Virus record (IMG/VR): IMGVR_UViG_3300035498_000530
Location: 64,001 to 128,000 of that record
Length of the DNA: 64,000 nucleotides
Source of the DNA: a virus
Taxonomy: Duplodnaviria; Caudoviricetes
Strand: one strand, 5' to 3'
Position 1 is the first letter of the stretch. The number at the start of each line of letters is the position of its first letter. Position numbers and translations under genes: made by a program. This document shows, piece by piece, positions 4,165-29,711 of this stretch. Below the pieces are notes generated by a model. That model saw only the letters and a list, made by a program, of their open reading frames with translations, ran no database searches and was not told where the DNA came from.

Positions 4165-4286
4165 AAAAATAAAAAAGGGGTGCCGTAGGATATCTATCCT
4201 ACGGCAAGTTCTTGTAATGAAAAATGACTATAGTTTAAACACTAAATACTTAAACACAAGGAGTATTTATTGCTTTTTACTTCATC
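4165..4286 (-). ncRNA. Candidate small RNA (~120 nt)
   Basis: Promoter AACT-ATACAA-TG (4297-4286); internal hairpin 4243-4269 with CCUUGUG loop; terminator 4181-4206 plus U-tract; no ORF. Confidence 0.5.
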
Positions 4287-4314
4287 ATTGTATAGTTAGT
4301 ATTGTAATAATTTA

Positions 4315-5049
4315 TTACACATCTTGTATTTTGATAAGTAAAGACTTTAAGTAGCTTAATGTATCAGCTGCAAAATAGTTATACTTTTCAAATTTAGATT
4401 CAAATAACAAAGAATTTTCATAAAGATGTAAATTATCCAAAGCATTTTCTGGATCATCAATGTTATTTACTCTATAGTTTAAAGATAATAACACATCATG
4501 AAGATATTGTATTAATCTTTTTGCTTCTTCTTTATCTACATTATCAGGAACTCTATGATCAATATTGATCTGTGTATCACTTGTATCTTTTTGCTTAATA
4601 GTAAGCTCGTAATCTTTAAGAAGATCTAATGAATAATTATATAAGAACTCTGTTGCAATATTAAGAATATCGCATATAGGTCCTTCTTTCATATTGCTAC
4701 TATTTAAAGATCCAGAATTTGTCAAATCAATAAATCGCCTAATATATTTATCTTTTTTAGGATCATATTCTTCCATAGATATATTTCTATCAAATTCATG
4801 CTTATCTACTATATACTCATCAAGTTCCCAACCCCTTTTCATAATTTGGTGCATCTCAATATTTGAAATTCTACAAGCATGAATTATAAGATGTATTGCA
4901 TCTACATAACTAAATTTAGAATTCTTTATATACTTATCGTAATCTATAAGTGATACTAATTCATAAACAGATATAATATCTACATCTGTATTCATTGCCT
5001 TCTTCAATATTGAAATTGTTGCTTCTTTAAGTTTCATGTAGTTTTCCAT
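4315..5049 (-). CDS. Hypothetical protein, paralog family A
   Basis: Shares EYDPKKD.YIR and DI.NIATE.LY..SL.LLKDYE with 5049..6722. Confidence 0.8.
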   Translation of the reverse strand: MENYMKLKEATISILKKAMNTDVDIISVYELVSLIDYDKYIKNSKFSYVDAIHLIIHACRISNIEMHQIMKRGWELDEYIVDKHEFDRNISMEEYDPKKDKYIRRFIDLTNSGSLNSSNMKEGPICDILNIATEFLYNYSLDLLKDYELTIKQKDTSDTQINIDHRVPDNVDKEEAKRLIQYLHDVLLSLNYRVNNIDDPENALDNLHLYENSLLFESKFEKYNYFAADTLSYLKSLLIKIQDV

Positions 5050-6722
5050 TATTCATCCTCCTCAATATTCTTTCCCACAGAAGGTGACTTTAAATATCCG
5101 ATTATACTAGATGCAAATGCTGCGCATTGGGCACCTGATAATTCTTTTGCCTTGGTTTCATAAAAATTTAAAAAAGATAAAGTATTTTTTGCATGATGCT
5201 GTACTCCATCTAAAACTTTGTTTACAAATATTAACATGTCTTCAGCATCTTCTTTAATTGATGATTTTATTACTGAATATAATCTTGATTCTATGTTTTT
5301 CTGAATATGCCTTGGTTCTTCAATTCTATTCTTATCTGGCATATAAAGAATACTTATAAAGAATTCATAGTTATCTTTAAGTCTATATTCTAAATCATAC
5401 TTGAAGAGATAGTCTGCTCTCTGTCTTAAAATAAATTTAATAGCAGAATAGTATGTGTCTTTAAAATCATCTAATAATACCATATTGATAAATCGTATAG
5501 ATTTAGATGATTTTAATTCATATATTGATTCTGTTATATCATTTATAAAAATATTTATAAAATGACTATACTTTAATTTTATTAGCTCATCATCTATATT
5601 ATAGACTGGCTTTTTGAAAAATACAGAATCAATATATCCGTTTAATATACAATTGCTAATATAATTAATTCTTTCTCTAAAGAAATCCACGTAATTATCA
5701 ATGATTTTCATAATACCATCATAGTCTTCTTTATATTTATAATCATAGATATAATATTTATTGATAAATTGTCTTTTGACACTATCCATATCAAATTCTG
5801 CTTTAGAATCTTGTGAATCTGTAGAATTATCAGATTTCTCATTATCAGATAACCAATTTTCTTTTTCTGATATTCTCTTAATCATAGATTGAATATCATT
5901 ACAGATATACTTAATCATATTATATAAAGAAATAGCATCTTTATTTTCTAAGCGTGTTCCATCTGGAACTTTTGTTCTACTATAGACATATTCAAATAAA
6001 TCTTTATCTGTTATAAATCTTTTTTCTTTTATACACTTTGAAAGAATTTCGTCTGCTGCCATTATACTACCATATATCATATCAAAAAACAATGTGTCTC
6101 CACCAAAATAAATATTACAGAAAAGCGTTGCTTTACCGCCTGCAAATCTTCTATAATATTCAGCATCTTCAGAATAGCATGAAATGAGATCATCTAATTC
6201 TTCATCTAGTTCTGTATTGCCTTCATAATCTTTAAGAAGATTTAATGAATGATCATATAATAATTCTGTTGCAATATTGATTATATCATCCATAATACTC
6301 CCTATACTAGGAATACTATTAACGCTTACAGTATCAGGAGATTTATTCGTAGATAAGTAATGTCTAATACAATTATCCTTCTTAGGATCATAGTCTTCTT
6401 CTGACTCTTCTTTACAGAAATTATGTCTTGAGCAAATATATTCATAAAGATCTCCATTATGCCTTATAATACTCTGCATTTCTTGCTCTTGCTTACAGCA
6501 ATAAAATGCTACATTAGCTATATTATGACACATAGAAAATCCTATTTCTGATGCAAATAATGGACCTCTAAATATACTCATTTCATCATTATCTGGAGCA
6601 GTAATAGTTGATACATAATCAAATATTCTATCTGCAGCTCTATCTGGTCTACCTTCATTCATTGCGTCTGTTAAAGCTTCCTCCACTTCAACTCTAAGTT
6701 GATCATAGTTATAGTTTTTCAT
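5049..6722 (-). CDS. Hypothetical protein, paralog family A (long form)
   Basis: 557-aa ORF, SD AAGGAGG, early-type promoter at 6781-6789. Confidence 0.85.
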   Translation of the reverse strand: MKNYNYDQLRVEVEEALTDAMNEGRPDRAADRIFDYVSTITAPDNDEMSIFRGPLFASEIGFSMCHNIANVAFYCCKQEQEMQSIIRHNGDLYEYICSRHNFCKEESEEDYDPKKDNCIRHYLSTNKSPDTVSVNSIPSIGSIMDDIINIATELLYDHSLNLLKDYEGNTELDEELDDLISCYSEDAEYYRRFAGGKATLFCNIYFGGDTLFFDMIYGSIMAADEILSKCIKEKRFITDKDLFEYVYSRTKVPDGTRLENKDAISLYNMIKYICNDIQSMIKRISEKENWLSDNEKSDNSTDSQDSKAEFDMDSVKRQFINKYYIYDYKYKEDYDGIMKIIDNYVDFFRERINYISNCILNGYIDSVFFKKPVYNIDDELIKLKYSHFINIFINDITESIYELKSSKSIRFINMVLLDDFKDTYYSAIKFILRQRADYLFKYDLEYRLKDNYEFFISILYMPDKNRIEEPRHIQKNIESRLYSVIKSSIKEDAEDMLIFVNKVLDGVQHHAKNTLSFLNFYETKAKELSGAQCAAFASSIIGYLKSPSVGKNIEEDE

Positions 6723-6821
6723 TTTCGTTGTCCTCCTTATTGATCTTATAGTGTATTATATAACTTCTGTTATACAGATCTATAATATATAGTCAAAGCA
6801 TATTTAAATTATAAAAAATAA

Positions 6822-6849
6822 AACCCTAGAGCTATTACACTCTAGGGTT
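6822..6849 (-). terminator. Intrinsic terminator (CCCTAG family)
   Basis: AACCCTAGAG...CTCTAGGGTT stem followed by a U-tract on the minus strand. Confidence 0.8.
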
Positions 6850-6888
6850 ATTATTACAATAATATCAAGACTCATGCTTTGAATCTAT

Positions 6889-8322: not shown

Positions 8323-8409
8323 AGTAGTTTCCTTTCTTGTATCTTAGTAGATACCTATGTATTATTATTTAGCTCAACATAATTGCTATATTATTACTAT
8401 TATAATATG
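8323..8409 (-). promoter_or_regulatory. Conserved early promoter + structured 5' leader, copy 1
   Basis: CATATTATA; UAGC-AAUUAUGUUGA-GCUA; AAUAAUACAUAG; GUAUCU-ACUA-AGAUAC; SD AAGAAAGGA. Confidence 0.8.
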
Positions 8410-8440
8410 TAACCATATGTACTAAGAATAGCAAAAAATA

Positions 8441-8468
8441 AACCCTAGTAGAATGAACTACTAGGGTT
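8441..8468 (-). terminator. Intrinsic terminator (CCCTAGTAG family)
   Basis: AACCCTAGTAG-AATGAA-CTACTAGGGTT. Confidence 0.85.
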
Positions 8469-8502
8469 ATTATTAATCAACAACATTAGTGCTTATGATC
8501 AT

Positions 8503-9642
8503 TTATTTTCTTCCATCATATGATGGAAAATTCTTATCTGGTGCTACAGTATTTAAATTATCCATCCAAGAAGTATTTCTATTATTAAATAAAGCCGCAC
8601 CAGCATCATATGGATTATTAGAATTAGACTCTAATGATGAAACTCTATATTCATCTTTACTTAATGAGAATATAGAATCTTTTATAGATTCGATAAGCTT
8701 TTGAGAAATATATAATAAAAATTCTTTTTCATTCTTAGACATTCTTGATCTTTTAATAGAATCTTCTATATTTTCAATTTCAGAAGAAGCATTTACATAA
8801 TTACGTTTCTTAAATATAGTAAATCGCAAATTATCTTTAATTGAGTCATATGGCATATTAAGTTCTTTACAAGAAGATATAGACTCAAGTAATTTTATTA
8901 TAAATTCATATGATTTTTGTTTTGGCTGGTATGATTCATCAAAGTATTTTGAATATTCATCATCAAATAACTTAAAATACTCATAAGTTTGTTTATCATT
9001 ATTACGACTCTCTAAATTAATCATTAGATCATATATTCTTGAATAATGGGCTGGATTTTGTCTATATAAAAATAAGGTGAATGGTATTTCATCTGTTTTA
9101 TCATCCAGATTATAATTAGCAACATAAGTTGCAAGATAGTATCTAAATATATCTGGTATACTATCATATATAAACTTTGCCAATAGTATATAATTAGGAG
9201 TTTTGCAATCTCCTAAAAATTGTTTAATATCAAACTTTCCCTTAAAAGCATAGCACCATGAACAATTATATATTCTTTCACCATTTGCGCCAGTATAATT
9301 AGTATTATATAAAATACTGTATAATATATCTACTTTATTTACATTAACACCCTGATTATATAAAGATTCAGCATTTAAAAGTTCATAATGCGGTATTTGA
9401 AGATATTTAGTATAAAAATCATCTGATGATCTTATATATTTACTGATTGGATCAATAATCCTATAAAAATCATCATTTATGGTTTTATAATTTGAATTAT
9501 CAAACAAATCTATAGTTGTACCTTCATATAAAGCAATAGTTAAACTACTCATAAATTCATGATATGATCTTTGATTAGAAATGATATCATATAACTTATA
9601 ATTATAATTTTGAGTATTGTTGCAATTTTCTTTCTTGTCCAT
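8503..9642 (-). CDS. Hypothetical early protein, paralog family B
   Basis: IPDIFRYY and EIENIEDSI...KEFLLY align with 6889..8322. Confidence 0.85.
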   Translation of the reverse strand: MDKKENCNNTQNYNYKLYDIISNQRSYHEFMSSLTIALYEGTTIDLFDNSNYKTINDDFYRIIDPISKYIRSSDDFYTKYLQIPHYELLNAESLYNQGVNVNKVDILYSILYNTNYTGANGERIYNCSWCYAFKGKFDIKQFLGDCKTPNYILLAKFIYDSIPDIFRYYLATYVANYNLDDKTDEIPFTLFLYRQNPAHYSRIYDLMINLESRNNDKQTYEYFKLFDDEYSKYFDESYQPKQKSYEFIIKLLESISSCKELNMPYDSIKDNLRFTIFKKRNYVNASSEIENIEDSIKRSRMSKNEKEFLLYISQKLIESIKDSIFSLSKDEYRVSSLESNSNNPYDAGAALFNNRNTSWMDNLNTVAPDKNFPSYDGRK

Positions 9643-9735
9643 AATTCTTATCCTTTCTTGTATCTTTTAAGATACTTATGTACATATTTATTATTAGCTT
9701 AGTACAATCGCTATATTTTATACTAATATAATATG
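9643..9735 (-). promoter_or_regulatory. Conserved early promoter + structured 5' leader, copy 2 (divergent loop)
   Basis: CATATTATA; UAGC-GAUUGUACUAA-GCUA; AUGUACAUAA; GUAUCU-UAAA-AGAUAC; AAGAAAGGA. Confidence 0.75.
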
Positions 9736-9767
9736 TGGTTAAATGGCATTTAACAAAAAATAAAACC

Positions 9768-10325
9768 CTAGTAGTATGAACTACTAGGGCTATTACTAAT
9801 CATAATATTAATATTTAAGTATTTACTACCAAATTCTTTTTCTAAATCTTCTAATATTTCATCTAACCATTCCATACGATTGTAAATAGGTGTAACAGGA
9901 TAAGTATTATTATTTTGCTCAATCTCAATAATAGGACTTATAGTAGGAATTAATGTTTTAATAGGTTTCAATTGATTATATTCTTCTGATCTATGAATTT
10001 CAGCTATAACATAGTAATCATAGAATCTATTTTCTCCTATATCATTAGCAGATTCTATAGTAGAATAGTCATCGCCTATATCTATAATCTTAAATCCGTA
10101 TCCATCAATATTGTTCAAGGAACATAGTTTATTAGTAATTCCAATACCAAAATCACTATATCTCCACTTTACATATTCATACTCTATATAATAGTATGGA
10201 GTTTCTTTTCCATTACCACTATAATACTTTATTGTATCTGCATAAGATAACTCTCTATAAAGATTCTTTATCTCTTCAAATGCTTTATTTTCGCATAATA
10301 TTATTACCTGAGATCTGAATCCCAT
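9768..10325 (-). CDS. Hypothetical protein
   Basis: 185-aa ORF; its stop lies inside the terminator hairpin 9766-9789. Confidence 0.75.
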   Translation of the reverse strand: MGFRSQVIILCENKAFEEIKNLYRELSYADTIKYYSGNGKETPYYYIEYEYVKWRYSDFGIGITNKLCSLNNIDGYGFKIIDIGDDYSTIESANDIGENRFYDYYVIAEIHRSEEYNQLKPIKTLIPTISPIIEIEQNNNTYPVTPIYNRMEWLDEILEDLEKEFGSKYLNINIMISNSPSSSYY

Positions 10326-10837
10326 AATTGATCATCCTTTCTATCTTCATCTTCTTCATAAATTATAGACATTGCTGATTCAATATCAAGACTAAAAATA
10401 TCAGTTTTATCTTGATATATAATTGGATATACAACTACAGACCTAATAACACAATCGTATTCGGGATGAGCATCACTAAATATATCTTTATTATGATTGT
10501 ATAATGCTATTGCTTCTGTTTTTGCTTCGTGCAGTGATGTGTAAATATCAGTACTATGACAAACAAAAGTACCCTGTCTAAATCCATCTACATGAAATAC
10601 TTCTGTAAATTGCCCAAAATAGTAAGTATTTGATTCTGGTTCCAGAAGCATTATAGTTTTAATAGAAGATTCATCATCATCCCATCTATCGGACTCTTTT
10701 AAATACTCTATTAATTTTTCTTTAGACTCAGAGAAACAATCAACAAGTCCATATACATTATTATACATTTTATGATAATGAATATAGAATAACTTTCTTT
10801 TGATTTCTCTTACATTGTCCTTGGTTTCAGCATCCAT
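10304..10837 (-). CDS. Hypothetical protein, family C (one SESKE domain)
   Basis: FSESKEKLIEYL...LEPESNTYYFG. Confidence 0.8.
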   Translation of the reverse strand: MDAETKDNVREIKRKLFYIHYHKMYNNVYGLVDCFSESKEKLIEYLKESDRWDDDESSIKTIMLLEPESNTYYFGQFTEVFHVDGFRQGTFVCHSTDIYTSLHEAKTEAIALYNHNKDIFSDAHPEYDCVIRSVVVYPIIYQDKTDIFSLDIESAMSIIYEEDEDRKDDQLWDSDLR

Positions 10838-10839
10838 AT

Positions 10840-11751
10840 TTAATCATCCTTTCTATTATATCCAGTTGTAAAATAATTGTAACGTTGAAAATGATAAATG
10901 CCATCTTCTTTGAATTTAACGCTTCTGTATAAATATATACATTTATACATATACTCGACTCTTTCATATCTAGAATCGCATTTACCATAAAAATTATCCA
11001 TAATCCTTTTGGTATCCTTTATTGCTTCTCTATATGAAACATATATGGTTGGAGACCAAGCGCTAACAATAGGATCATCATCTTCACTAGTATTTGAATA
11101 CCAATGGCTTTCTGTAATAAAATATGATGATGATTCTGGAACTCTTATAGTACTTATATAGCTATCATTATAATAACCATCAATATTATTACGTTTATCT
11201 GTAAGATACTCTATTAATTTTTCTTTAGATTCTGACATTACTCTGCATGCATCTCTAAAATAAATATAAAAAGTTTTAATTTTATTATCATCTACATTAT
11301 CATCGTAATCCAGGAGTTCAATATTACTATCTTCATAATAGTCTCCAATTTCTTCAGAATGAACTTTAGATATTATAATAACAGTTTTATATGCTTCCTT
11401 TCCTTCCTTAAAATGATTATTATACAATTCATTAGATTTGACTTTTGCATAATCATAATCTGTATATACATTATCATAATAGTTCAAAGCATCACAATTA
11501 TCAGAACATATTGTATTCCAATAAACTGCCTCTGTATATCCTGACTGATAATAAGTTTCAGCTTCAGGAAGATATATTGTTTCTACAATAGGATTATCCA
11601 CACACTGCAGAAGATTTGATACTTGATCTTCTGATTTGCATATAAATCTCACTCGCCTACCAGAAACAACATTAATTCCCTTTTCATATATTGCATAAAG
11701 CATCTCTACGCAATTATTCTTTATTGGATTGGTTTTTCTTTCTTCTTCCAT
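10840..11751 (-). CDS. Hypothetical protein, family C (two domains)
   Basis: KSEDQV...LPEAETYYQSGY and MSESKEKLIEYL...VPESSSYF. Confidence 0.85.
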   Translation of the reverse strand: MEEERKTNPIKNNCVEMLYAIYEKGINVVSGRRVRFICKSEDQVSNLLQCVDNPIVETIYLPEAETYYQSGYTEAVYWNTICSDNCDALNYYDNVYTDYDYAKVKSNELYNNHFKEGKEAYKTVIIISKVHSEEIGDYYEDSNIELLDYDDNVDDNKIKTFYIYFRDACRVMSESKEKLIEYLTDKRNNIDGYYNDSYISTIRVPESSSYFITESHWYSNTSEDDDPIVSAWSPTIYVSYREAIKDTKRIMDNFYGKCDSRYERVEYMYKCIYLYRSVKFKEDGIYHFQRYNYFTTGYNRKDD

Positions 11752-11835
11752 AATTTGTCCTTTCTTGTACTTATTGTACTTATGTATTATTTAATGACTC
11801 AACATAATTGTCATATTATACAAATCTATAATATA
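11752..11835 (-). promoter_or_regulatory. Conserved early promoter + structured 5' leader, copy 3
   Basis: TATATTATA; AUGAC-AAUUAUGUUGA-GUCAU; AAUAAUACAUAA; GUAC-AAUAA-GUAC; AAGAAAGGA. Confidence 0.8.
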
Positions 11836-11868
11836 TAGTCATATGGTATTTAAATTATAAAAAATAAA

Positions 11869-11894
11869 ACCCTAGTAGAATGAACTACTAGGGT
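11869..11894 (-). terminator. Intrinsic terminator (CCCTAGTAG family)
   Basis: ACCCTAGTAG-AATGAA-CTACTAGGGT, same core as 8443-8466. Confidence 0.85.
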
Positions 11895-11902
11895 ACTTTT
11901 AT

Positions 11903-12334
11903 TTAGTCTTCGATAGTGCTTATAGTTTCAAGAACATAAGCATCTTCTCCTCTGCCTTTGATAAGCATATATAATGTTTTCTCTGATGATTGCAATTCAT
12001 ATGTCTGATTTTGTCTGCAAAACATACCTTTATTATTTCTATAAAGATCTTCAAGATTCTCTTTAGATTTAGTAGATAATATGCAGATATTTCCATAATA
12101 TGGAATAAATTTTTCGTCTCCTTCATCATTAGAGACCCATTCAGCATATTCAGCTTGATAATATGCATCTTGTTCTGGAAGTCTCAAAGTTATTAATCTT
12201 TTATTAATATCTTCTTGATTCTTCCATCTTTTGCTTATATATTGATATACTAGTTCTTTTGACTCAGACATGTATCTTACAAGGCCTCCGTCATTATAAG
12301 CATAAAATATCTTTGAATTTCTATCAAATAACAT
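11903..12334 (-). CDS. Hypothetical protein, family C (one domain)
   Basis: YMSESKELV...LRLPEQDAYYQAEY. Confidence 0.8.
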   Translation of the reverse strand: MLFDRNSKIFYAYNDGGLVRYMSESKELVYQYISKRWKNQEDINKRLITLRLPEQDAYYQAEYAEWVSNDEGDEKFIPYYGNICILSTKSKENLEDLYRNNKGMFCRQNQTYELQSSEKTLYMLIKGRGEDAYVLETISTIED

Positions 12335-12336
12335 AA

Positions 12337-13218
12337 TTAGTTATCCTCTTTTCTTATTACTTTACTAAGACTCTTATAGTTGTTAAGACAATAAAAGCCG
12401 TCTCCATCTTCTTCATATGAATATATAGTCACGTTACCAAAAAGATATTTGTATTTATTAGAAGTAATTTTATTATCTTCATAAATATCAAATGCTCTTC
12501 TTTCTGCTTCAGCGGCTGATAAACAAACGTTAGTATTATAAGATTTAGACATAACAGGATTTTTACCAAAACTAAACCATTCTTCATAGCATCCTATATA
12601 ATAAATATCACTACTTGGAAGTTTCAATTCAATTATTGCATCTTTATTGATGTTATTCCAACTTGATATTTCACTAATAAGATCTTCTTTAGACTCTGAC
12701 ATTATTCTTATTACACCCTGTTCAACATAAGCATAAATCGTTTTAAAATCTTTATTATCAGTATCCTTTTTATCATCTATATATTCAGTATTAGTAACTG
12801 CATAGTATTCCCCAATATAGCGAGTATTTACTTTGGATATTGTGTTTATTACATTATATGACTCTACTCCTTCTTTAGAATGATCATTATATAATCTTTC
12901 ACCATCCATTACAGCATCATTATAGTTTGCATATACATCACCATAATATTCAATAGTATCACGAACATAATCTCTATTTACTTTACGATAAATTACTTCA
13001 TGATATCCCGCCTGATAATATACATCTGATTTTTGAAAGTGGAGTTTCATAGCACATAAATTTTTATTTCTCAACAGTTTAAATGCCTGATCCTCTGAAT
13101 CACTTAAATATTTGATTTTAAAGTGACCTTCTGATAATGAATAACGTACTACATAATCATCTTTAGTTTCATTTGCATTTTCGTTTTCATTAACTTTCAT
13201 TTCTTCATTTTCTTCCAT
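12337..13218 (-). CDS. Hypothetical protein, family C (two domains)
   Basis: Colinear paralog of 10840..11751 (SEDQ...YYQAGYHE; MSESKED...LPSSDIYY). Confidence 0.85.
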   Translation of the reverse strand: MEENEEMKVNENENANETKDDYVVRYSLSEGHFKIKYLSDSEDQAFKLLRNKNLCAMKLHFQKSDVYYQAGYHEVIYRKVNRDYVRDTIEYYGDVYANYNDAVMDGERLYNDHSKEGVESYNVINTISKVNTRYIGEYYAVTNTEYIDDKKDTDNKDFKTIYAYVEQGVIRIMSESKEDLISEISSWNNINKDAIIELKLPSSDIYYIGCYEEWFSFGKNPVMSKSYNTNVCLSAAEAERRAFDIYEDNKITSNKYKYLFGNVTIYSYEEDGDGFYCLNNYKSLSKVIRKEDN

Positions 13219-13306
13219 AATCTTGTCCTTTCTTGTACTTATTGTACTTATGTATTATTATTTAGCTCAACATAATTGCCATATTATTATACAGATCTAT
13301 AATATA
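13219..13306 (-). promoter_or_regulatory. Conserved early promoter + structured 5' leader, copy 4
   Basis: TATATTATA; UGGC-AAUUAUGUUGA-GCUA (G-U pair); AAUAAUACAUAA; GUAC-AAUAA-GUAC; AAGAAAGGA. Confidence 0.8.
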
Positions 13307-13374
13307 TAGTCAAAGTATATTTAAATTATAAAAAATAAAAGACTGCCATAAGACAGTCTTTATTTATTAATCAA

Positions 13375-14553
13375 TCAGTAATGTACATTATACATATTCT
13401 CATAATCCCGAACAATACTATCCATGAAAATTAATTTTTTCTTTTCTTTGTTTAAATATGTATTATTATTAAAATACAACTTATCATACATCTCATCAGA
13501 AATTGTATCTTTGATTGATTCTTCATATTCTTTCATTACCCTATAGCACTCCTTATAAAGTTCTATTAATCCCTTTCTAATACCAGAATTATAATCTTTA
13601 TCAAAAAGACTAATGTTTGATATAATATAAATCATTTCATCAATAAACTTTGTCATATCTTCAAAATTAACCCTATTTATTATTACAGGCATTGAATTTT
13701 CTGATGATGGCTGCTTTACTACATATCTATGATGCTTATAAATCAATATAGCCTCAACCAATGCGTATATATATGTCAGCATAGCATTTAAAGACTCTTC
13801 ATCATGTAAACCACGACTTTCATTAAAATAACTCTGTATTTTGTTAGCATCTATTGTAGGTTTTGGTTTATTGTTTAATGAAAAAGGATCATAGTAATCT
13901 GGTGCTGGATGCATTATAGTATTGTATATATCAGTATGCTCAGATTCTGATATTTCAATATATGAATGAAAACTAATAACCCATTTAAAATTAAGCGGAT
14001 TTCTCTTAGTAAATTTCTCAAATATATTATCAAAATGTATATGTATATATCTTTGAATAATACTAGGAGCCATGTATGCAAAGATTGACATAAAAGCGGC
14101 AGAAGAATTAGTTATTTCATCTTTCTTATAATTTTCATAATTTCTTATATTGGTATATCTAATATTATTTGGATTGATCAAATTACGAGCTATATTAGTA
14201 TAGAATATATTGGATCGATTATCATTTATCAATCTATCCTGTAAATAATTAAAAAATCCATCAGGATCACGATAATTAGATTTATTGTATTCATAGTGGT
14301 ATCTAATAAATTCATCATCTGAAACAGAATACAGCATTTTAAACTCTTTAGAATCCACATTATCTTTAATAGTATTTATAAATTCTATAAAATAATTATA
14401 AACTATTGGATCATCAGACATATATGGTTCTACGTACTTCCAAATACTGTCTACATCATTTTTACGATATATCATATTTGCAATATCTCGTGTAAATTTG
14501 TAATACAGTGTTGAACTTGTCATGATACTAAAAATAGTTTTCTTTTCTTCCAT
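13375..14553 (-). CDS. Hypothetical early protein, probable family B
   Basis: KFTRDIANMIY and APSIIQRY resemble family B motifs. Confidence 0.8.
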   Translation of the reverse strand: MEEKKTIFSIMTSSTLYYKFTRDIANMIYRKNDVDSIWKYVEPYMSDDPIVYNYFIEFINTIKDNVDSKEFKMLYSVSDDEFIRYHYEYNKSNYRDPDGFFNYLQDRLINDNRSNIFYTNIARNLINPNNIRYTNIRNYENYKKDEITNSSAAFMSIFAYMAPSIIQRYIHIHFDNIFEKFTKRNPLNFKWVISFHSYIEISESEHTDIYNTIMHPAPDYYDPFSLNNKPKPTIDANKIQSYFNESRGLHDEESLNAMLTYIYALVEAILIYKHHRYVVKQPSSENSMPVIINRVNFEDMTKFIDEMIYIISNISLFDKDYNSGIRKGLIELYKECYRVMKEYEESIKDTISDEMYDKLYFNNNTYLNKEKKKLIFMDSIVRDYENMYNVHY

Positions 14554-14643
14554 AATCTTATCCTTTCTTATATCTTCTTAAGATACCTATGTATTATTTA
14601 ATGACTCAACATAATTGTCATATTATTATACTACTATAATATA
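14554..14643 (-). promoter_or_regulatory. Conserved early promoter + structured 5' leader, copy 5
   Basis: TATATTATA; AUGAC-AAUUAUGUUGA-GUCAU; AAUAAUACAUAG; GUAUCUU-AAG-AAGAUAU; AAGAAAGGA. Confidence 0.8.
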
Positions 14644-14710
14644 TAATCATGTATACTAAAAATAACAAAAAATAAAACCCTAGTATTAATTACTAGGGTT
14701 ATTATCTTGT

Positions 14711-15253
14711 TTAAACTGATTCTTTTTCAGTTAATAATCTTAATCTGATTTCTCTCATCTTATCTGCACTCAACTCAGGTTTAGAATAACTGCTTATATT
14801 TATATTATCAAATAATCCAATAGCAAGTTGTAAATCTTGTTCATAAGTATATTCATCTTTTTCAATATCAGATTGGTACTTCTCTTGGTTGTGCACATGA
14901 TGTTCCTTAAGAAGTATTAATGTAATCCCTCTTAAAACATTTTCAACTATATTACCATAAATAATATGATAATCGCTAGGTAAATTTTCTTTAACTTTAC
15001 TTACAAGAATATTATGTAATTTAGTTATGCCTTCATCTGTAAACATATCATCAATGTTTCTATCTTTTGACAAATAATGAAAAATATATAATTCCTTTAA
15101 TCTATTTTCATAAATCTCAATAGTATTATTGATACATTGTTCTACTTCAGCCTTGATATATTCATCAAAATTAATTTGTTCAGTTAATCCACGTCTAATA
15201 CGTTCAATTGATTCTTCGCTTAATTTTCCATTACACATGTTTTCTTTATTCAT
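14711..15253 (-). CDS. Hypothetical early protein (start corrected to MNKENM at 15253)
   Basis: The SD AAGAAAGGA and the conserved leader sit just upstream of ATG 15253; the track start (15277) falls inside the leader hairpin. Confidence 0.8.
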   Translation of the reverse strand: MNKENMCNGKLSEESIERIRRGLTEQINFDEYIKAEVEQCINNTIEIYENRLKELYIFHYLSKDRNIDDMFTDEGITKLHNILVSKVKENLPSDYHIIYGNIVENVLRGITLILLKEHHVHNQEKYQSDIEKDEYTYEQDLQLAIGLFDNINISSYSKPELSADKMREIRLRLLTEKESV

Positions 15254-15340
15254 AACTTTTTCCTTTCTTGTACTCATTTGTACCTATGTATTATTATTTA
15301 GCTCAACATAATTGCTATATTATTATACTACTATAATATG
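15254..15340 (-). promoter_or_regulatory. Conserved early promoter + structured 5' leader, copy 6
   Basis: CATATTATA; UAGC-AAUUAUGUUGA-GCUA; AAUAAUACAUAG; GUAC-AAAUGA-GUAC; AAGAAAGGA. Confidence 0.8.
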
Positions 15341-15369
15341 TAATCATTGTAATTATATTTAACAAAAGA

Positions 15370-15404
15370 TATCCCTAAGGAATTTACTATGTTCCTTAGG
15401 GATA
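15370..15404 (-). terminator. Intrinsic terminator
   Basis: TATCCCTAAGGAA-TTTACTATG-TTCCTTAGGGATA; core repeated at 25847-25875. Confidence 0.8.
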
Positions 15405-15409
15405 AATGT

Positions 15410-18146: not shown

Positions 18147-18283
18147 AAACAAAGGAGCGCCCAGTAGACCGATCCTACTGGGCATAATTTGTAACAATAC
18201 ATACAAGAAAGGTTTAATGGAAATCTTATATTCCAACTTATGAAACTTAAGGGACATTTATGGACAATATTTTATTGACCCTC
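18147..18283 (-). ncRNA. Candidate trans-acting sRNA antisense to the conserved early leader
   Basis: Promoter AACA-TATAAG-TG (18294-18283); terminator stem 18159-18183; contains UUCCAU-UAAA-CCUUUCUU-G-UAUGUAUUGUU. Confidence 0.65.
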
Positions 18284-18312
18284 ACTTATATGTTATTAGT
18301 TTATAATATTTT

Positions 18313-18591
18313 ACAAAGTGTATCCCGTATGGGGTCATAACTTCCATACGGGATAGGAGAAATTGTATGCATGAACCATGCCATACCTGATACGCATTAA
18401 CCAATGGAATGGAAAATGTGTTTTTGTTGTAAGGTTTAATTTTATCGCAATCTCAGGAACAGAGTAGAATATGATATAGTATTGTGTATTTTTATATTGA
18501 TTTGAGGATTGTTATAAAACATGTATAAAAAGTAACAATAAAATTTTGTAAAATCTTTATACTATATCAATCTTCTGTTATATTAAACCTC
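18313..18591 (-). ncRNA. Candidate rod-shaped structured RNA (~280 nt)
   Basis: Promoter AACA-TATATT-TG (+1 at 18591); nested stems 18432-40/18582-90, 18472-81/18560-69, 18508-14/18533-39; terminator 18321-18355. Confidence 0.65.
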
Positions 18592-18621: not shown

Positions 18622-18838
18622 CAAAAGAAATCCCGTATGGCTCACAGGTACCATACGGGATATATCTAAGGAAAATAAGCAGCAAAATGGCAAGTCAAGT
18701 CGCTTTCCAAAGGGTGCACCTTTATATATTTACAAGGAATTTTTATTGAATAGAAATGTATTAGATTTGTAAAATTAAGTAAATGCTACAATACTACATC
18801 CTTACCGGAAGCAAGTCGGCTATTTTATACTTATCTTC
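18622..18838 (-). ncRNA. Candidate small RNA (~215 nt)
   Basis: Promoter AACA-TTTATT-TG (+1 at 18838); terminator 18630-18661 with the same TCCCGTATGG stem as 18321-18355; no ORF. Confidence 0.55.
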
Positions 18839-23363: not shown

Positions 23364-23407
23364 ATACTTACCTCCTTTAATTTATCTTATTTTATAGTTC
23401 AATTTGC

Positions 23408-23774
23408 AAAAAAGGATGAGATAGGCATTTCTGCCTATCTCATAGAGGTGTTCATTTAGGTTAAATAATATATATCATATCATAGTCAGTGTCTGGAACA
23501 TTGTGTGCGATTGTCTATATTATTTTAATTTTTCGGAGGTTAACTTTTGTAATTGAAAGCAATTCGTGAAATTTTTAGTTATTGCACCGAAAGCGTTGTT
23601 ATATTTTGGCATTTATTGTTTGTTTTTATTTAACCTAAATGTGAAAAATGTCTATAGATTATATTTATCTCAATTATATATCTATCTTTTGTGCATTATT
23701 TATAAATACTACATAATTGTGTACGCAGGTTTTAAAAGGAAACTTTGTAGTATCTGATCCTATATAATCTATTT
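23408..23774 (-). ncRNA. Candidate structured RNA (~370 nt)
   Basis: Promoter AACA-TCTAAT-TA (+1 at 23774); stems 23654-64/23762-72 (11 bp) and 23453-68/23626-41 (16 bp); terminator 23416-23443. Confidence 0.65.
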
Positions 23775-23799
23775 AATTAGATGTTAAGTTTGGAATTAT

Positions 23800-24205
23800 C
23801 AGATTTGGTTTTCCCTCTCTCCCCCCTTACACCCCCCTCTCTCTCTTTCCATCTTAATTTTTATTATACTATATTATGCCTCATTGGACTTTTACTATAT
23901 TATTTTATCCTTCTCTCTTTTATACGTTTATTTCTTAAGTATTATTATTTTATTACCAATTGGTATATTACTATCTGCTCGCTCGGCGCTCGCTTTAGGG
24001 TTTTCTTTTTCTATACCTATTGGGCTCTCTACTGTTTGATTTTACCCCCCTACCCCCCATGGTAACTTTTTACCATGAGGAGTAATGAGTGATTTGCTAT
24101 CCAAAAACTGGTACCAATATAGATACTATAGCCCCTATGGAATCTATCTTTGAAATATACGGTAGGTCTCCAGTCCAACACAATAGCCAGTCCGTCGCTC
24201 TCTAT
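23800..24205 (-). other. G-rich non-coding element at the divergence point; candidate replication origin / primer RNA
   Basis: C-runs on + at 23813-23846 and 24045-24058; GC-rich CTGCTCGCTCGGCGCTCGCT at 23975-23994; promoter AACT-AAAAAG-TA (+1 at 24205). Confidence 0.4.
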
Positions 24206-24235: not shown

Positions 24236-24434
24236 ACAAAAGAGGACCAGGTAGTCCGAGTGACTACCTGGATTTTTTGGATGTTTGAGATCCACATTTT
24301 GGCTGAGTGTGTTAATTTGTGTTTCTCTTTGTTGACATGAACTAAGAAAGGAACAAACCTTGATGTGCGTAAACAAGTGAAAATTACATTCCGAGAAGGT
24401 ACTTTTAAATAGCAATCATATAATAATCCCTTGT
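24236..24434 (-). ncRNA. Candidate small RNA (~200 nt)
   Basis: Promoter AACA-TTATAA-TA (+1 at 24434); terminator 24247-24271; anti-SD GUUCCUUUCUUAG. Confidence 0.55.
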
Positions 24435-24455
24435 ATTATAATGTTATGTACTGTA

Positions 24456-24967
24456 TAAAATAAAACCCGAAGGATTTTTATTATCCTTCGGGCATAATAT
24501 TATTGATTGCTGAAATAATTGTTATTGTTAGCATAGAACTATGCTTGTATAAATATAATTTTACTTATTATTTTTCCGCATATTAAATTACTATAGTTAT
24601 AATCTGCTGTCTCGCACGAAATATAGGTACTATTATATAGTAGTATTTCATATAAGCGTTTTTGTTATTCACACTAAATAAAGCAATTAATATTTTTGTT
24701 TTTGTTTTTGAAAGTTACTGTTAATTGGGGACAAAAACCCTTGCTATGTCTTTGCTTTATAATAGTAGTTATGAGTAATAACATGTGAGTGTTTTTTATG
24801 TTTTTACGCATAGTTTCAGCAATAAATATTATGGATACTTGATACTTTGACTATAGATTTATGACGTTCCCCTCTTTGAAAATGATTGAACTTACTTAGT
24901 TCTTTAGTGTAATTACTTTATGAGATTGCTAAATCACAATTTTTTCGGTCAAATTATTTTTATACCT
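24456..24967 (-). ncRNA. Candidate long structured RNA (~510 nt)
   Basis: Promoter AACA-ATATAG-TA (+1 at 24967); long bulged stem 24493-24515/24814-24833; terminator 24466-24492; no ORF of 60 aa or more. Confidence 0.6.
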
Positions 24968-25054: not shown

Positions 25055-25072
25055 AGAAAGAGGTGATCTAAA

Positions 25073-25237: not shown

Positions 25238-25516
25238 ATGAAATCAAAAATTAATAAAACAGTACTTACAGCTGAAGAATATGTAATGTTTATTACTGAA
25301 AAATCTCATACTCTTAATACCAAAGAGGATGATGAAATTCAGATAGAAAAAATTTTAAACGATGAAGGATATGATATATGGTCTTATCCTTTAGATGAAG
25401 TTGACGAGGCTATGGAAAATAATGATCATATTGCTCTTGTTAAGCTTAATCATTATAGGAATGGTAAAGTCAGCTATTCTGAACATAGATGGTACGAGGT
25501 ACCAATATTAGACTAA
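25238..25516 (+). CDS. Hypothetical protein
   Basis: 92-aa ORF with SD GAAAGGA. Confidence 0.75.
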   Translation: MKSKINKTVLTAEEYVMFITEKSHTLNTKEDDEIQIEKILNDEGYDIWSYPLDEVDEAMENNDHIALVKLNHYRNGKVSYSEHRWYEVPILD

Positions 25517-25539
25517 TATTTACTTAAAGGAGAAAACAC

Positions 25540-25836
25540 ATGAAAAGAAATATAGATTATAATAGAATAAAAAAGAGTCATGTCATTTTTAATGACATCA
25601 AAGGAAACGAATATGAAGGAGAATTTACTTCAGAAAGAGTAGAAAGAACAACAGTTCCAGAAGGATTATATACCTATGAATGTAGGCATAATGATGATGG
25701 ATATGTTGATGTTCCTGCAACTATTGAAGACAAAGTCTTTGTAAACTTCTGTGGAACTTTCTTTACAGATAAGAAAGTGTATTTCCCAGATAAGATGGAC
25801 CATTGTATTGTAATAGACAAAATAAACTACAAGTAA
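25540..25836 (+). CDS. LPD28-like (large polyvalent protein-associated domain) protein
   Basis: FTSERVERTTVPEGLYTYECRHNDDG...PATIEDKVFVNFCGT matches the LPD28 pattern as I recall it. Confidence 0.7.
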   Translation: MKRNIDYNRIKKSHVIFNDIKGNEYEGEFTSERVERTTVPEGLYTYECRHNDDGYVDVPATIEDKVFVNFCGTFFTDKKVYFPDKMDHCIVIDKINYK

Positions 25837-25904
25837 GAAAACTATCCCCTAAGGAATTTACTATGTTCCTTAGGGAGTTTTATATATCATAGGAGGAATT
25901 AATT

Positions 25905-27107
25905 ATGAAAAAGAGAATTGCAAAATACGATTCCGATCAAATGGAGCAAATCCGTTTGGGATTGGAAGATGGTCTGGATGTAAGTTGGTATGCTGATCCA
26001 AGATATGATAGCGAGCAAATGAATCGTATAAGAACTGGTCTTAAAGAAAATTTGTATGTAAAATGGTATGCAAATCCAGATTTTAACAAAATGCAAATGA
26101 GAGAAATCATGATAGGACTTAGAAATGGTTTAGATGTAAAATGGTATGCTAAACCAGAGTTTAACCAATATCAGATGGAACAGATAAGATATGGACTTGA
26201 AGAAGGACTCGATCCAAAATATTATGCTGATCCTGCATATAAGCCATATCAAATAAAACAGATCATTCTCGGATTAAAATCCAAGGTTGATGTTTCTATA
26301 TATTCAGAGATCATTGAGGTTGAAGAAGAGGAAGATAAAGAAGAAAATAATACTTCTAATCCTTATTATGCTGGTATAGCTTTATTTGGAAATTCAGAAA
26401 ATAAATCTAATGATAAGAATGAACTTTTTACTTTTGATTCTGATAATAAGAATATTGTTAATATATATAAAGGAAAGGGGGTTATAGAAGATATATGTCC
26501 CGATTTCGATATTAATATAAATGATATTATTAATAAAAATCCAGAAGATTTAACAGATGATGAAAGATCTGTATTATTGGATATTAACTTATTTAGTAAT
26601 CGTAGTAGATATCTTGATGGAGACGATTCTTTTTATCTTGATATTAAGAGAATTATTCATGAGCGATTTGGAATTGAAGATTCTGATGATTATATCCATC
26701 AGATGATTAAAATATCTAGTTTATCTGAAGAGTCAGAAGAAGATGAAGAATATGAATCTAGTGAAAAAGATTATGAAGAATCTAATGAAGATAATTCTTC
26801 ATCTGAAGACGAAGATGCTGATGATACTTCAACTACAAAAGAGTCTCCTATAAAGAAAGTATTATCTTTCTTATCAAGAGGTGCATATAACGAAGATCAA
26901 TTACATCAGATTAATTTAGGAAAAGAGCATGGAGTTGATACTTATGTATATTCTGATCCAAGACTTAATGCTAAGCAAATGAAACAGATAAGAAAAGGAT
27001 TAGAAGATGGACTTGATGTATCACTATACGCAAAAACTTGGGTTGATCATAAGTACATGAAGAAAATGAGAAAGAAACTTAAGAAAGTGCAGAAATTTTT
27101 TGAATAA
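25905..27107 (+). CDS. Repeat protein (~24-aa YAxPxFxxxQMxQIRxGLxxGLDV units) with an acidic linker
   Basis: Five N-terminal and two C-terminal repeat units. Confidence 0.85.
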   Translation: MKKRIAKYDSDQMEQIRLGLEDGLDVSWYADPRYDSEQMNRIRTGLKENLYVKWYANPDFNKMQMREIMIGLRNGLDVKWYAKPEFNQYQMEQIRYGLEEGLDPKYYADPAYKPYQIKQIILGLKSKVDVSIYSEIIEVEEEEDKEENNTSNPYYAGIALFGNSENKSNDKNELFTFDSDNKNIVNIYKGKGVIEDICPDFDININDIINKNPEDLTDDERSVLLDINLFSNRSRYLDGDDSFYLDIKRIIHERFGIEDSDDYIHQMIKISSLSEESEEDEEYESSEKDYEESNEDNSSSEDEDADDTSTTKESPIKKVLSFLSRGAYNEDQLHQINLGKEHGVDTYVYSDPRLNAKQMKQIRKGLEDGLDVSLYAKTWVDHKYMKKMRKKLKKVQKFFE

Positions 27108-27138
27108 TATGATTTTTATATAAGAAAGGAAGATTATT

Positions 27139-27966
27139 ATGGACAATACATTGAAAACATTTTATGCAGAAATAGGTACAGACGATTATATATATTCTGT
27201 ATCTCAATCAAAAGAGAAAGTATTAGCAGAAGCATTAAAAGAAAAGGGTCATTTTAAAGGAAGAGTTGCAAGGATTATAAGTATGCAACTTCCAGAAAGA
27301 GATATATATTATCAACCTATGTTAAATGTAACTCTCAATGATGGTGAACTTTTATATCAAATTTGTGAAAATGAAATTATAGATTCATGGGAAGATGCAG
27401 TAAAAAGATCTCATGAATTATATATTAAATATAATTCTAAAATTGATAAAGATTATACATTAGAAGAAGCAGTTTCTTATATGGAAGAATTAGAACCTGG
27501 TAGTGGGCTTTATATGGTTAATTTTGATGATCCTGAAAAGGTAATTAGAATAATAAGTTCATCTGAAAGAGGATGTGATATGAAATTAGGTAAGTTTTTA
27601 ACTGTAAAATTAAATGGAAAAACAATAGAGCCAATTACTTTATCTAATTTAAAGAAACGCATTGAGTCTATTAATAAAGAATCTAGAGATGATATTTCTA
27701 TAGGAATATCATATACTGTAGACCTTTTGCCAGAGGCAAAGTATAATGCCGATCAATTAAGAAAAATATTCTATGGTATTGAAAACGGTGTCGATATATC
27801 TAAATATTATGATCCAGAATTTGATGCTGATCAAATGGCTCAAATATATTTAGGCTTACAACATGGTATAGACTTATCGGTTTTAGGGCATGACTGTGAT
27901 TATACTAAAATGGAAAATATCAGGCTTCAGTTAGAAAAATTGTTAGAAAAGAAATCAGAAGAATAA
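27139..27966 (+). CDS. Family C domain fused to QMxQIxxGL repeats
   Basis: SQSKEKVL...LPERDIYYQP; C-terminal YNADQLRKIFYGIENGVDISKYYDPEFDADQMAQIYLGL. Confidence 0.85.
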   Translation: MDNTLKTFYAEIGTDDYIYSVSQSKEKVLAEALKEKGHFKGRVARIISMQLPERDIYYQPMLNVTLNDGELLYQICENEIIDSWEDAVKRSHELYIKYNSKIDKDYTLEEAVSYMEELEPGSGLYMVNFDDPEKVIRIISSSERGCDMKLGKFLTVKLNGKTIEPITLSNLKKRIESINKESRDDISIGISYTVDLLPEAKYNADQLRKIFYGIENGVDISKYYDPEFDADQMAQIYLGLQHGIDLSVLGHDCDYTKMENIRLQLEKLLEKKSEE

Positions 27967-28056
27967 ATAATTATTAAGGGCTACCAATTTGGTAGCCTTA
28001 TATTTTTTGCTACTAAGGACATTATATTAAAAATACTAAAGGAGTATAATAAAATT

Positions 28057-28440
28057 ATGAATAAGAAAAAGAAGAGAGAATTTATAAATGGTCTTGATAA
28101 GTTAGATAATGAATTGAATGATAAGATTAGCTCTATAGACAATAATGTCAGAATTATGACTCCAGAAGGAATCAATAATCAGCTTAATAAATTATCTATA
28201 GTAGAATTAGAGTATTATGCTAATAAGCTTATAGCACATGCCGATGATGATACTATAGGAAAAATATTTAATTATCTTCAAGATACATTTAATATAGGAA
28301 ACAAAGAATTTGATGTCATATGCCCTAAGAAGGATAAGAGAGAGTTAATGGATTTTACTTTAGCTTGGTTTAAGAGTAGAAACGGAGAATCCATAAAACT
28401 TCTTATACTTAAATTTAAGGCATTAGAAGCAGTAGCATAA
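28057..28440 (+). CDS. Hypothetical protein
   Basis: 127-aa ORF with SD AAGGAG. Confidence 0.75.
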   Translation: MNKKKKREFINGLDKLDNELNDKISSIDNNVRIMTPEGINNQLNKLSIVELEYYANKLIAHADDDTIGKIFNYLQDTFNIGNKEFDVICPKKDKRELMDFTLAWFKSRNGESIKLLILKFKALEAVA

Positions 28441-28455
28441 GAAAGGATAATTAAT

Positions 28456-28830
28456 ATGAAAGAGAAACAAAAATTTTATGTTTTAATAGATGATGATCAT
28501 GTTATTATAAATATATCAAAAAATAAGGATCTTATTTCTAGCTTGGTAAAAGAAGAGGAAGGTAAACGTTTACAAGAATGGAATATTGAAGAAGAAGATT
28601 ACTATTACCAGCCTGTATATTCTGAAACTTATACTGATAATAATTTGGAAGAAGAATATATCTACGGAGGTAAGATCTGTTCAACAAAGAAAGAAGCAAT
28701 AGAAGATTATCATCGATTATATACTAGCTATTATGAGAATGAAGATAATTCATGTGGATTCATTAATTTTATTTCTAAAGAAACTGATGGTGATGAATTA
28801 TATAAAGTCTTATATAGTGAATTTGTATAA
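28456..28830 (+). CDS. Hypothetical protein, family C (one domain)
   Basis: ISKNKDLI...EEDYYYQPVYSETY. Confidence 0.75.
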   Translation: MKEKQKFYVLIDDDHVIINISKNKDLISSLVKEEEGKRLQEWNIEEEDYYYQPVYSETYTDNNLEEEYIYGGKICSTKKEAIEDYHRLYTSYYENEDNSCGFINFISKETDGDELYKVLYSEFV

Positions 28831-28837
28831 ACAGAGT

Positions 28838-28863
28838 ACCCTAGTAGTATGAACTACTAGGGT
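28838..28863 (+). terminator. Intrinsic terminator (CCCTAGTAG family)
   Basis: ACCCTAGTAG-TATGAA-CTACTAGGGT plus T-tract; core identical to 9766-9789. Confidence 0.85.
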
Positions 28864-28943
28864 TTATTTTTTGTATAATAGTAATTTTATCAATATATTA
28901 TAACTATGTATTAAATATATTTATCTTAAGGAGGATAATAAAA

Positions 28944-29474
28944 ATGGAAAATGTAAAAGACCTTATAAAGGATATCCATGATAATTTAAAACAAGCTTCA
29001 GCTTCTTCTAAGGATGAAGTTAAAGTTATGAAAGCTATGCTTAATGACAAAGACTTTACTGTAGATATCTATGGTAAAGATGGTAAGGTTGGAGAATATA
29101 ATCCATCTTCAGAAGTAAGATCTGCTATTGGTGGTATCATTGCTTCAACAACTAAGATTACTAAGACAGAAGCAGAAGGAATGATTGGCAATTATGAATT
29201 TAAGAATTCAGAAGCTGAAGCATTCGTTAATCTGTCTAAGGAGTATGTAAATACTTATCTTGATACAGGTAGAAAACTTTCACTTGGTTCAAGAAAAGAA
29301 TCAGACATCTCTCTTCTTAGAAAGGAAGAGAAAGAAGGATATGTATCATATCCTAAGAAGATTGGTGAAAAAGATGGTGTTGCTATTTATGATAAAGGCA
29401 AGACATTTGTTCCGGCACATAAAGGCATCAAAGTTATTTCACCTTGTCCAGAACATTTAAGATCAGATAAGTAA
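28944..29474 (+). CDS. Putative HU/IHF-like DNA-binding protein
   Basis: Helical N-terminal half, then GRKLSLG and FVPAHKGIKV resembling the HU beta-arm; both promoter types upstream. Confidence 0.45.
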   Translation: MENVKDLIKDIHDNLKQASASSKDEVKVMKAMLNDKDFTVDIYGKDGKVGEYNPSSEVRSAIGGIIASTTKITKTEAEGMIGNYEFKNSEAEAFVNLSKEYVNTYLDTGRKLSLGSRKESDISLLRKEEKEGYVSYPKKIGEKDGVAIYDKGKTFVPAHKGIKVISPCPEHLRSDK

Positions 29475-29711
29475 TAAAAACAAAGGGTTTCCCCATAGGA
29501 TTACGGTCCTATGGGGAATTTTATTTTTTGTGGTAGTATTTTTATTTTTTCGCAAATTTAATGAAAGGAAATTTTATTTTATGATCTTCGAATTAAGGAC
29601 TGCACCACAAAAAATAATTTTGTCGTCATCTGTTAACAACTTAATTTAATCAGGAGAAATTTCCAATGATGAACATACGAAAATACGGCTAACTAAATTC
29701 ATACATCCATT
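29475..29711 (-). ncRNA. Candidate small RNA (~235 nt)
   Basis: Promoter AACT-ATTATA-TA (+1 at 29711); stem ~29521-34/29604-16 enclosing anti-SD UUUCCUUUCA; ends at bidirectional terminator 29489-29518. Confidence 0.55.

Follow-up and report, generated by a model that had tools for sequence, protein, structure and literature searches.

Nine minus-strand units in the large intergenic gaps of a tailed phage related to Bacillus phage AR9 (Caudoviricetes; IMG/VR virus record IMGVR_UViG_3300035498_000530) carry a bias towards words complementary to Shine-Dalgarno (SD) sequences and start codons that is statistically real and strand-specific. The units, referred to below as units A to I, lie between positions 4165 and 29711 of the 64,000-nt stretch of DNA that was analysed (the window) and, judging from their sequence, they are probably real late non-coding transcription units. 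The best single mechanism that we can propose, with a probability of about 0.4, is that most of the RNAs would mask ribosome-binding sites, especially those of early genes. The phage record comprises 167,464 bp, with 30% G+C and, by the standard code, about 93% of coding sequence; its bases 8087-72086, reverse-complemented, make up the window.

Promoter-terminator units in the large gaps

The preliminary description of this DNA had placed a minus-strand AAC(A/T)-N6-T(A/G) motif at nine +1 positions (4286, 18283, 18591, 18838, 23774, 24205, 24434, 24967 and 29711), and a terminator at the other end of every unit except the one starting at 24205. All nine motifs are present and read TAAC, with a G at +1 in four of them (4286, 18283, 18591 and 18838) and an A in the other five; a G+C-rich hairpin followed by a T-tract closes eight of the nine units, and none was found for the 24205 unit. 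One of these terminators, that of unit B, has an 11-nt loop, was missed by the scanner and was identified by reading the sequence. The region 17900-30000 contains 19 terminator-like sites, compared to 3.2 in shuffled sequences, and three of the terminators are bidirectional. The distance from a terminator to the next predicted start is 28-48 nt in seven instances, the next start being either another unit or the downstream gene's own promoter (18116, 23388 and 4133). The four gaps (3.3 kb) contain 15 motif matches on the minus strand and 4 on the plus strand, with a genome mean of 1.4 per kb per strand. No open frame was detected in the gaps under the standard code, nor when TGA is read as W, TAG as Q or TAA as Q. 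Rfam 15 gave no match in the whole window at the gathering score, and at E≤1 in the two large gaps it returned only the trpB motif at a chance-level E of 0.43; ARAGORN found neither transfer RNA (tRNA) nor transfer-messenger RNA in the window. The units had been described as a family, a term that suits their shared architecture and not their ancestry: only the terminator-promoter junctions of units A, B and C are repeats, and blastn among the nine units revealed no similarity beyond these junctions. A search for further units elsewhere in the genome yielded none that was convincing.

The motif matches the late consensus of phage AR9, AACA-N6-T(A/G), which ends at the start site, the early consensus of that phage being AAATATATATTAT-N6-G (PMC5312081). 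We counted 471 matches to AAC(A/T)-N6-T(A/G) genome-wide, 14.6% of which fall in intergenic DNA (7.1% of the genome). The motif is found 56 times at 10-100 nt before same-strand start codons, when 16.4 are expected, with a sharp peak at 20-29 nt, and it precedes several virion structural genes, the giant 7033-codon amidase/M23 peptidase gene and, here and in relatives, the RNA polymerase beta gene. The genome's only tRNA gene, Lys-UUU (genome 130718-130790, that is about -58703 to -58631 in window coordinates, outside the window), has a late-type promoter, from which transcription is predicted to begin 3 nt ahead of the mature 5' end, and is followed by a hairpin terminator; thus, the unit architecture already serves one real non-coding RNA. 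A late tRNA is common to this phage and AR9, whose single tRNA gene belongs to the late class (PMC5312081). Because the motif is enriched before starts and stands before structural genes, the beta gene and the tRNA, it behaves, as far as its placement in the genome tells, as a real AR9-type late promoter in this phage, and the promoter logic of the preliminary description is sound. When scored with an extended matrix derived from the promoters close to genes, the nine units reach 5.7-9.7 and rank 60-212 of about 335,000 positions. Six shared leaders, described below, have an AR9-like early element (TAYATATTATAG) at their head, as does a plus-strand operon starting near 25002.

Unit A (18622..18838, on the minus strand like all the others; about 215 nt) starts at 18838 behind a TAACA-N6-TG motif, which scores 8.9 on the promoter matrix (rank 70 of about 335,000), ends at a terminator at 18661-18630, contains no open reading frame (ORF) and has anti-SD tracts UUCCUU at RNA positions 100 and 166. 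Its body folds with a z of -2.6, and the same value was obtained for unit B (18311..18591; about 275 nt, +1 at 18591, terminator 18355-18321), which displays the tracts UCCUC, UUCCU and, directly 5' of the terminator, UUUCUCCU, the complement of TAGGAGAAATTGTATG. The promoter-terminator junction of unit B is 83% identical to that of unit C (18147..18283; about 135 nt, +1 at 18283, terminator 18184-18158), in which the tract CCUUUCUUGUAU has an unpaired probability of 0.88 and is accompanied by two more anti-start segments. On the other side of the beta gene, unit G (23405..23774; about 370 nt, +1 at 23774, terminator 23443-23416) is located directly upstream of that gene's own promoter and folds with a z of -2.2, its tracts UUUCCUUUU and AACCUCCG having unpaired probabilities of 0.77 and 0.52. 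At rising coordinates it is followed by the G-rich unit F (23775..24205; about 430 nt, motif with +1 at 24205, no terminator), by unit E (24238..24434; about 195 nt, +1 at 24434, terminator 24271-24247, tract UUCCUUUCUUA) and by the A-rich unit D (24455..24967; about 510 nt, +1 at 24967, terminator 24493-24465). Unit H (4165..4286; about 120 nt, +1 at 4286, terminator 4206-4181) has its tract ACUCCUUG in a predicted loop. Finally, unit I (29478..29711; about 235 nt, +1 at 29711, bidirectional terminator 29518-29489) runs antisense to the spacer that separates an early operon from the giant structural gene; it folds with a z of -2.65, contains the tracts UUUCUCCU, GUCCUUA and UUUCCUUUC, and its plus strand has mini-ORFs of 22 and 8 codons. 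Altogether, five bodies are more stable than dinucleotide shuffles (z from -2.2 to -2.8), and units C, E, F and H are not.

Two further observations concern the late motif. At 811-953 on the minus strand, a high-scoring copy (+1 at 910) is followed about 10 nt downstream by a hairpin with a T-tract and then by an early promoter, an arrangement that looks like a very short promoter-terminator unit. Besides, palindromes of the GTAATAAATTATTAC type occur 10-20 nt upstream of some late motifs (units A and H, the 25054 promoter and others; examples are 4290-4312, 18845-18870 and 25022-25045), and a genome-wide scan for the GTAA...TTAC palindrome upstream of promoters was not convincing.

Anti-Shine-Dalgarno tracts and candidate targets

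The genes of this phage have strong ribosome-binding sites nearly throughout, AAGGAGG in most and a separate AAGAAAGGA class that is concentrated in early blocks. Every SD-like string that had been quoted for the strand opposite to the units is present on the plus strand. The bias was measured with seven 5-mers taken from the phage SD cores, the complements of which were counted in the unit bodies without their terminators (2,181 nt), expected counts being derived from first-order composition. As anticipated in the preliminary description, anti-SD 5-mers are enriched, with 30 occurrences when 7.2 are expected (ratio 4.15). SD-like 5-mers on the same strand are depleted (5 compared to 17.7 expected, ratio 0.28). 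For coding DNA, each of the two ratios is close to 1.05; when nine antisense pieces of coding sequence were drawn at random, no set attained 4.15, and none of 1000 dinucleotide shuffles attained the observed anti-SD counts. The enriched 5-mers made only of C and T are complements of the SD sequence (CUCCU, CUUUC, UCCUU, UUCCU, UCCUC, CCUUU and CCUCC), and UCUUC, UCUCU, CUCUU, CUCUC, CCCUC and CCCCU have zero occurrences in the unit bodies. In agreement with the earlier proposal that several tracts fall in predicted loops, the mean unpaired probability over the 17 merged tracts is 0.58, compared to 0.46 for random windows (p=0.026). The anti-start component was likewise recovered: on the plus strand, ATG, GTG or TTG follows 14 of the 17 tracts at a distance of 4-13 nt, compared to 7.1 ± 2.0 expected (p=0.0006), and ATG alone follows 6, compared to 2.9 expected (p=0.05). 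With start-like codons at this spacing, the tracts mirror whole initiation regions. The anti-SD description holds for seven of the nine units (A, B, C, E, G, H and I) and does not for D and F.

The clearest candidate targets are six near-identical early-gene leaders (8323..15409, minus strand), in each of which an early TAYATATTATAG-type promoter and then two hairpins precede AAGAAAGGA and the start codon; their genes start at 8322, 9642, 11751, 13218, 14553 and 15277. All the intergenic copies of AAGAAAGG in sense orientation are real ribosome-binding sites, except for two copies, in units C and E, where the word is antisense; coding DNA holds a single antisense copy of AAGAAAGG in about 155 kb. 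The CCUUUCUUGUAU tract of unit C is complementary to the SD region of the six leaders and, for those of 8322, 9642, 11751, 13218 and 15277, forms an exact complement of 11-12 nt. The predicted duplex of unit C with the six leaders, which reaches over the AUGGAA start, has a mean energy of -23.8 kcal/mol, compared to -18.0 ± 2.5 kcal/mol for shuffled sequences, and 4 of 150 shuffles pair as well with the six leaders. The UUCCUUUCUUA tract of unit E is complementary to the UAAGAAAGGAA-type ribosome-binding sites of genes 27139, 28456, 14553, 60316 and 8322. When targets were predicted across the phage, the antisense excess was clear for these two units and weak for unit H (8 antisense and 3 sense matches). 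Whole-body duplex energies against 128 initiation regions are uninformative without controls.

The mechanism that we favour would run as follows. Compact, independent and protein-less units would fill the large non-coding gaps and would be transcribed late by the phage non-virion RNA polymerase from AAC(A/T)-N6-T(A/G), transcription stopping at the intrinsic terminators. Of these nine transcripts, about seven (A, B, C, E, G, H and I) would expose mostly unpaired pyrimidine tracts that copy the 3' tail of 16S ribosomal RNA (CCUCCUUUCU-like), often with CAU a few bases upstream of the tract, and these tracts would pair in trans with the SD sequence and start codon of messenger RNAs (mRNAs) to the exclusion of ribosomes. 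The best candidate targets would be the phage's own early mRNAs with AAGAAAGGA-type sites, a site that units C and E mirror exactly. The outcome could be a handover, controlled by RNA, from the translation of early messages to that of late ones. Another function is probable for units D and F, and host or defence-gene mRNAs as targets, which the preliminary description had also suggested, are pure conjecture.

Several results weigh against this masking mechanism. Antisense matches to phage initiation regions are no commoner than sense matches for units A, B, D, G and I; the earlier idea of an antisense RNA battery is partly supported, by the architecture, the bias, the accessibility of the tracts and the complementarity of units C and E. 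No complementarity of at least 18 nt was found between the units and any phage gene, and the early leaders come only sixth to seventh among the duplex partners of unit C (128 initiation regions). Late mRNAs carry strong AAGGAGG sites, which are also open to GGAG-complementary tracts. Moreover, anti-SD words are no denser in absolute terms (30 per 2.2 kb) than on the strand opposite to ordinary genes (22.3 ± 6.4 per 2.16 kb, p=0.13); the signal is an excess relative to the composition of the units themselves. Two units do not fit in themselves: unit D is structured (z=-2.8) but has no real anti-SD tract, only one weak CUUUC, and the single tract of unit F is fully paired inside a hairpin. The unit promoters score below most gene-proximal ones (mostly 10-17.5, for a training set that scores itself), and the G start seen in four units is rare among the gene-proximal promoters of this phage. 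In Listeria phage LPJP1, a crude automated test of orphan promoters gave no pooled enrichment (29 compared to 29.2, or 0.99-fold), and among the relatives found none is near enough for a conservation or covariation test of the tracts.

Rival readings and the G-rich unit F

The units could be real late non-coding transcripts with tracts that do not target ribosome-binding sites in trans, which we regard as rather unlikely. The tracts would then serve protein binding or the tuning of RNA stability or termination, or would be a by-product of selection against ribosome loading, and the RNAs could act, for example, as scaffolds, as decoys for host RNases or as defence sensors, or could insulate the RNA polymerase gene transcriptionally. 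Consistent with this, most units have no specific predicted target, units D and F have no usable tracts, several tracts abut terminator stems, with terminator tails that read CUCCUUU, UCCUCUUUU or AUCCUUUUUU, and the fold of five units is more stable than that of shuffles, a property expected of structural RNAs. Ribosome avoidance, however, accounts for the depletion of SD words and not for a four-fold anti-SD excess limited to SD-complementary words, and it leaves unexplained both the start-like codon spacing and the fact that units C and E hold exact complements of AAGAAAGG. Those same codons, found 4-13 nt after 14 of the 17 SD-like tracts, are what one would expect if it were the plus strand that is meaningful, its SD-plus-start modules being initiation sites of mini-ORFs, either micropeptides or minigenes, or decayed duplicated initiation regions and the minus-strand signals incidental. 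The complement of unit C indeed resembles three consecutive initiation regions, both genes flanking unit I are encoded on the plus strand, where the unit's 22- and 8-codon ORFs lie behind SD-like text, and three terminators are bidirectional. This explanation nevertheless appears improbable: with one exception the mini-ORFs have 1-9 codons, the plus-strand composition is not coding-like, and in the 18090-18863 and 4114-4314 gaps the plus strand is antisense to both neighbours and has no early or late promoter, while the minus-strand phasing of promoters and terminators is regular over seven repeats. Least probable of all is that the motifs are chance matches in AT-rich spacer from which nothing discrete is made. 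The core motif is short (471 copies genome-wide) and the nine copies score only moderately on the extended matrix, yet chance would hardly give a three-fold motif density on the minus strand, the phasing with terminators and a strand-specific k-mer bias that 0 of 1000 shuffles reproduced.

Somewhat more credible than any of these, and still unlikely, is that the divergent gap of 1.9 kb (23364-25237) functions as an origin of replication or as another control region at the DNA level. A transcript of unit F carrying G6-TA-G6 and devoid of a terminator would form a stable R-loop or G-quadruplex that primes DNA synthesis, and the small units beside it would have a part in origin activation or in insulation, and none in the control of translation. 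Unit F has 103 G and 55 C, displays G6-TA-G6 and G6-TGTAA-G6, and holds four of the five runs of at least 6 G/C in the genome, all with G on the RNA-like strand, and the minimum of the global cumulative GC skew lies at about 24,600. The double G-runs also recur at a comparable place: the only G6-N-G6 in the 223.6 kb of LPJP1 (GGGGGGTTGGGGGG) is situated in a 1-kb divergent gap upstream of the beta gene, about 270 nt downstream of TAACA-N6-TA, and in the 231-kb contig behind locus L005 the only such runs lie in a repeat-rich 2.2-kb gap beside the beta gene, about 75 nt after TAACA-N6-TA (the double G6 runs are at 23775-24205 on the minus strand in the window, 4225-4245 in locus L006 and 9885-9960 in locus L005). 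The G-runs may resemble the G-run block of the human mitochondrial origin, and they are the only part that unit F shares with LPJP1 and L005 when aligned. Against an origin, the GC skew here largely tracks gene orientation, and double G-runs are missing from PBS1, Fusobacterium phage JD-Fnp4 and the contigs behind loci L001 and L004, Staphylococcus phage S6 having one G5...G5 that lies elsewhere in its genome. An origin would also leave the anti-SD statistics unexplained, together with units A to C, H and I, which lie in other gaps. Altogether, these data suggest that unit F is probably a separate conserved element and a candidate transcription-primed origin, a role that would not extend to the family as a whole. 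Two other proposals for unit F were rejected: as a structured RNA it gives a z of only -1.5 over the first 241 nt and -0.7 overall, and the 94-codon plus-strand ORF that it contains (23781-24065) has no SD sequence and lies on a pyrimidine-rich strand, which depletes stops.

Masking and an origin may also be combined. About seven unrelated late RNAs imitating the 3' tail of 16S ribosomal RNA would then mask AGAAAGGA-type sites and start codons of the phage's own early messages, and perhaps of residual host ones, beside a transcription-primed origin with G6-TA-G6 that distant relatives also keep adjacent to the beta gene. As a whole this is doubtful; if correct, it would amount to an RNA-only early-to-late switch doing the job of the T4 RegB and RegA proteins.

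Relatives and known systems

The beta protein (1499 residues; minus strand, 18864-23363) has its matches in phage families named 'RNA polymerase beta subunit', and its identity with the counterparts in Bacillus phage PBS1, Listeria phage LPJP1 and staphylococcal jumbo phages is about 30%. Scans of IMG/VR and metagenomes with this protein gave uncultured relatives that are at best 40-47% identical, none exceeding 47%, and the tmk-like protein neighbouring the beta gene had a single match, at 48% identity; these distances make comparison at the nucleotide level impossible. Megablast against the phage collection found no close relative, and a blastn comparison of the gaps with those of the relatives yielded nothing but AT-rich, composition-driven matches at 60-70%. 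Recoding was considered for the large gaps of loci L004 and L005 and rejected, part of the signal being an ORF that runs past the locus end. In locus L001 (10389-10530), a late motif comes after the beta gene, then an ORF-less stretch of about 140 nt that contains UUUCCUC and UUUCUCCUU, and finally a hairpin. A gap of LPJP1 at about 41,600-41,740 also resembles such a unit; both cases are anecdotal.

Other features of the window were noted in passing. At 16181-18089 (minus strand), a ThyX-domain protein with a long N-terminal extension adjoins the thymidylate-kinase-like protein, a pair that raises the question of whether this is an AR9 relative with thymine instead of uracil in its DNA that has kept an AR9-type late promoter. 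The 7033-codon ORF (29898-50999, plus strand) has amidase and M23 peptidase or tape-measure-like matches only near its C terminus, and its first 3500 residues match no phage family. A 39-codon ORF at 25073-25192 (plus strand) has a good SD sequence (GAGGTG), a TTG start and the end ...TPIIFFD, and is preceded by an early and a late promoter, so that the right end of the 1.9-kb gap is coding; small genes that resemble it by eye (KKxEFLExI...) are divergent from the beta gene in loci L001 and L005.

Small RNAs of virulent phages are barely characterised. They have been predicted for only a few such phages, and the primary transcriptome of phiKZ led to a single predicted small RNA that a Northern blot failed to confirm (PMC8244752). 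If the masking mechanism were true, nearly all the non-coding DNA of this phage would be given to late anti-SD RNAs, which would point to an RNA-based temporal control of translation in a lineage that already transcribes independently of its host. The interest lies mainly in the number of units and in the clean strand-specific statistics, the case adding a quantitative, strand-specific enrichment test; unit C or unit E with the shared early leader are simple testable pairs.

As regards transcription logic, the closest known system would be the late and antisense transcripts of AR9 (PMC5312081, PMC5449584), with which this phage shares the late consensus AACA-N6-T(A/G) ending at the start, a related multisubunit beta protein and a late tRNA. 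Seven AR9 late promoters drive antisense RNAs (PMC5312081). Those RNAs overlap genes, whereas the units described here are free-standing, ORF-less, bounded by terminators, intergenic and anti-SD-biased, and the AR9 paper describes no comparable battery of units. In T4, the RegB endoribonuclease and the RegA repressor shut off early mRNAs in the course of infection by attacking or covering their SD/start region; these are proteins, whereas the effector proposed here would be RNA, with a timing that we infer from promoter type alone. In the mode of action, the closest parallels may be the C-rich small RNAs of Firmicutes or the phage RNAs c4 and DicF. RsaE/RoxS, the Staphylococcus aureus RNAIII and FsrA use unpaired C-rich or UCC seeds in loops or linkers to block G-rich ribosome-binding sites; the likeness resides in the pyrimidine-tract mode, the strong SD sequences and the fact that no chaperone signature is needed, while there is no relation in sequence or in Rfam, and the units here are phage-encoded, have a phage-specific late promoter and come in many unrelated copies. 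Likewise, c4 of P1/P7 and DicF of the Qin prophage are short phage RNAs that use exposed bases to pair with the target mRNA at its ribosome-binding region, but they are single RNAs of temperate elements with defined targets, and the models of Rfam found no match here.

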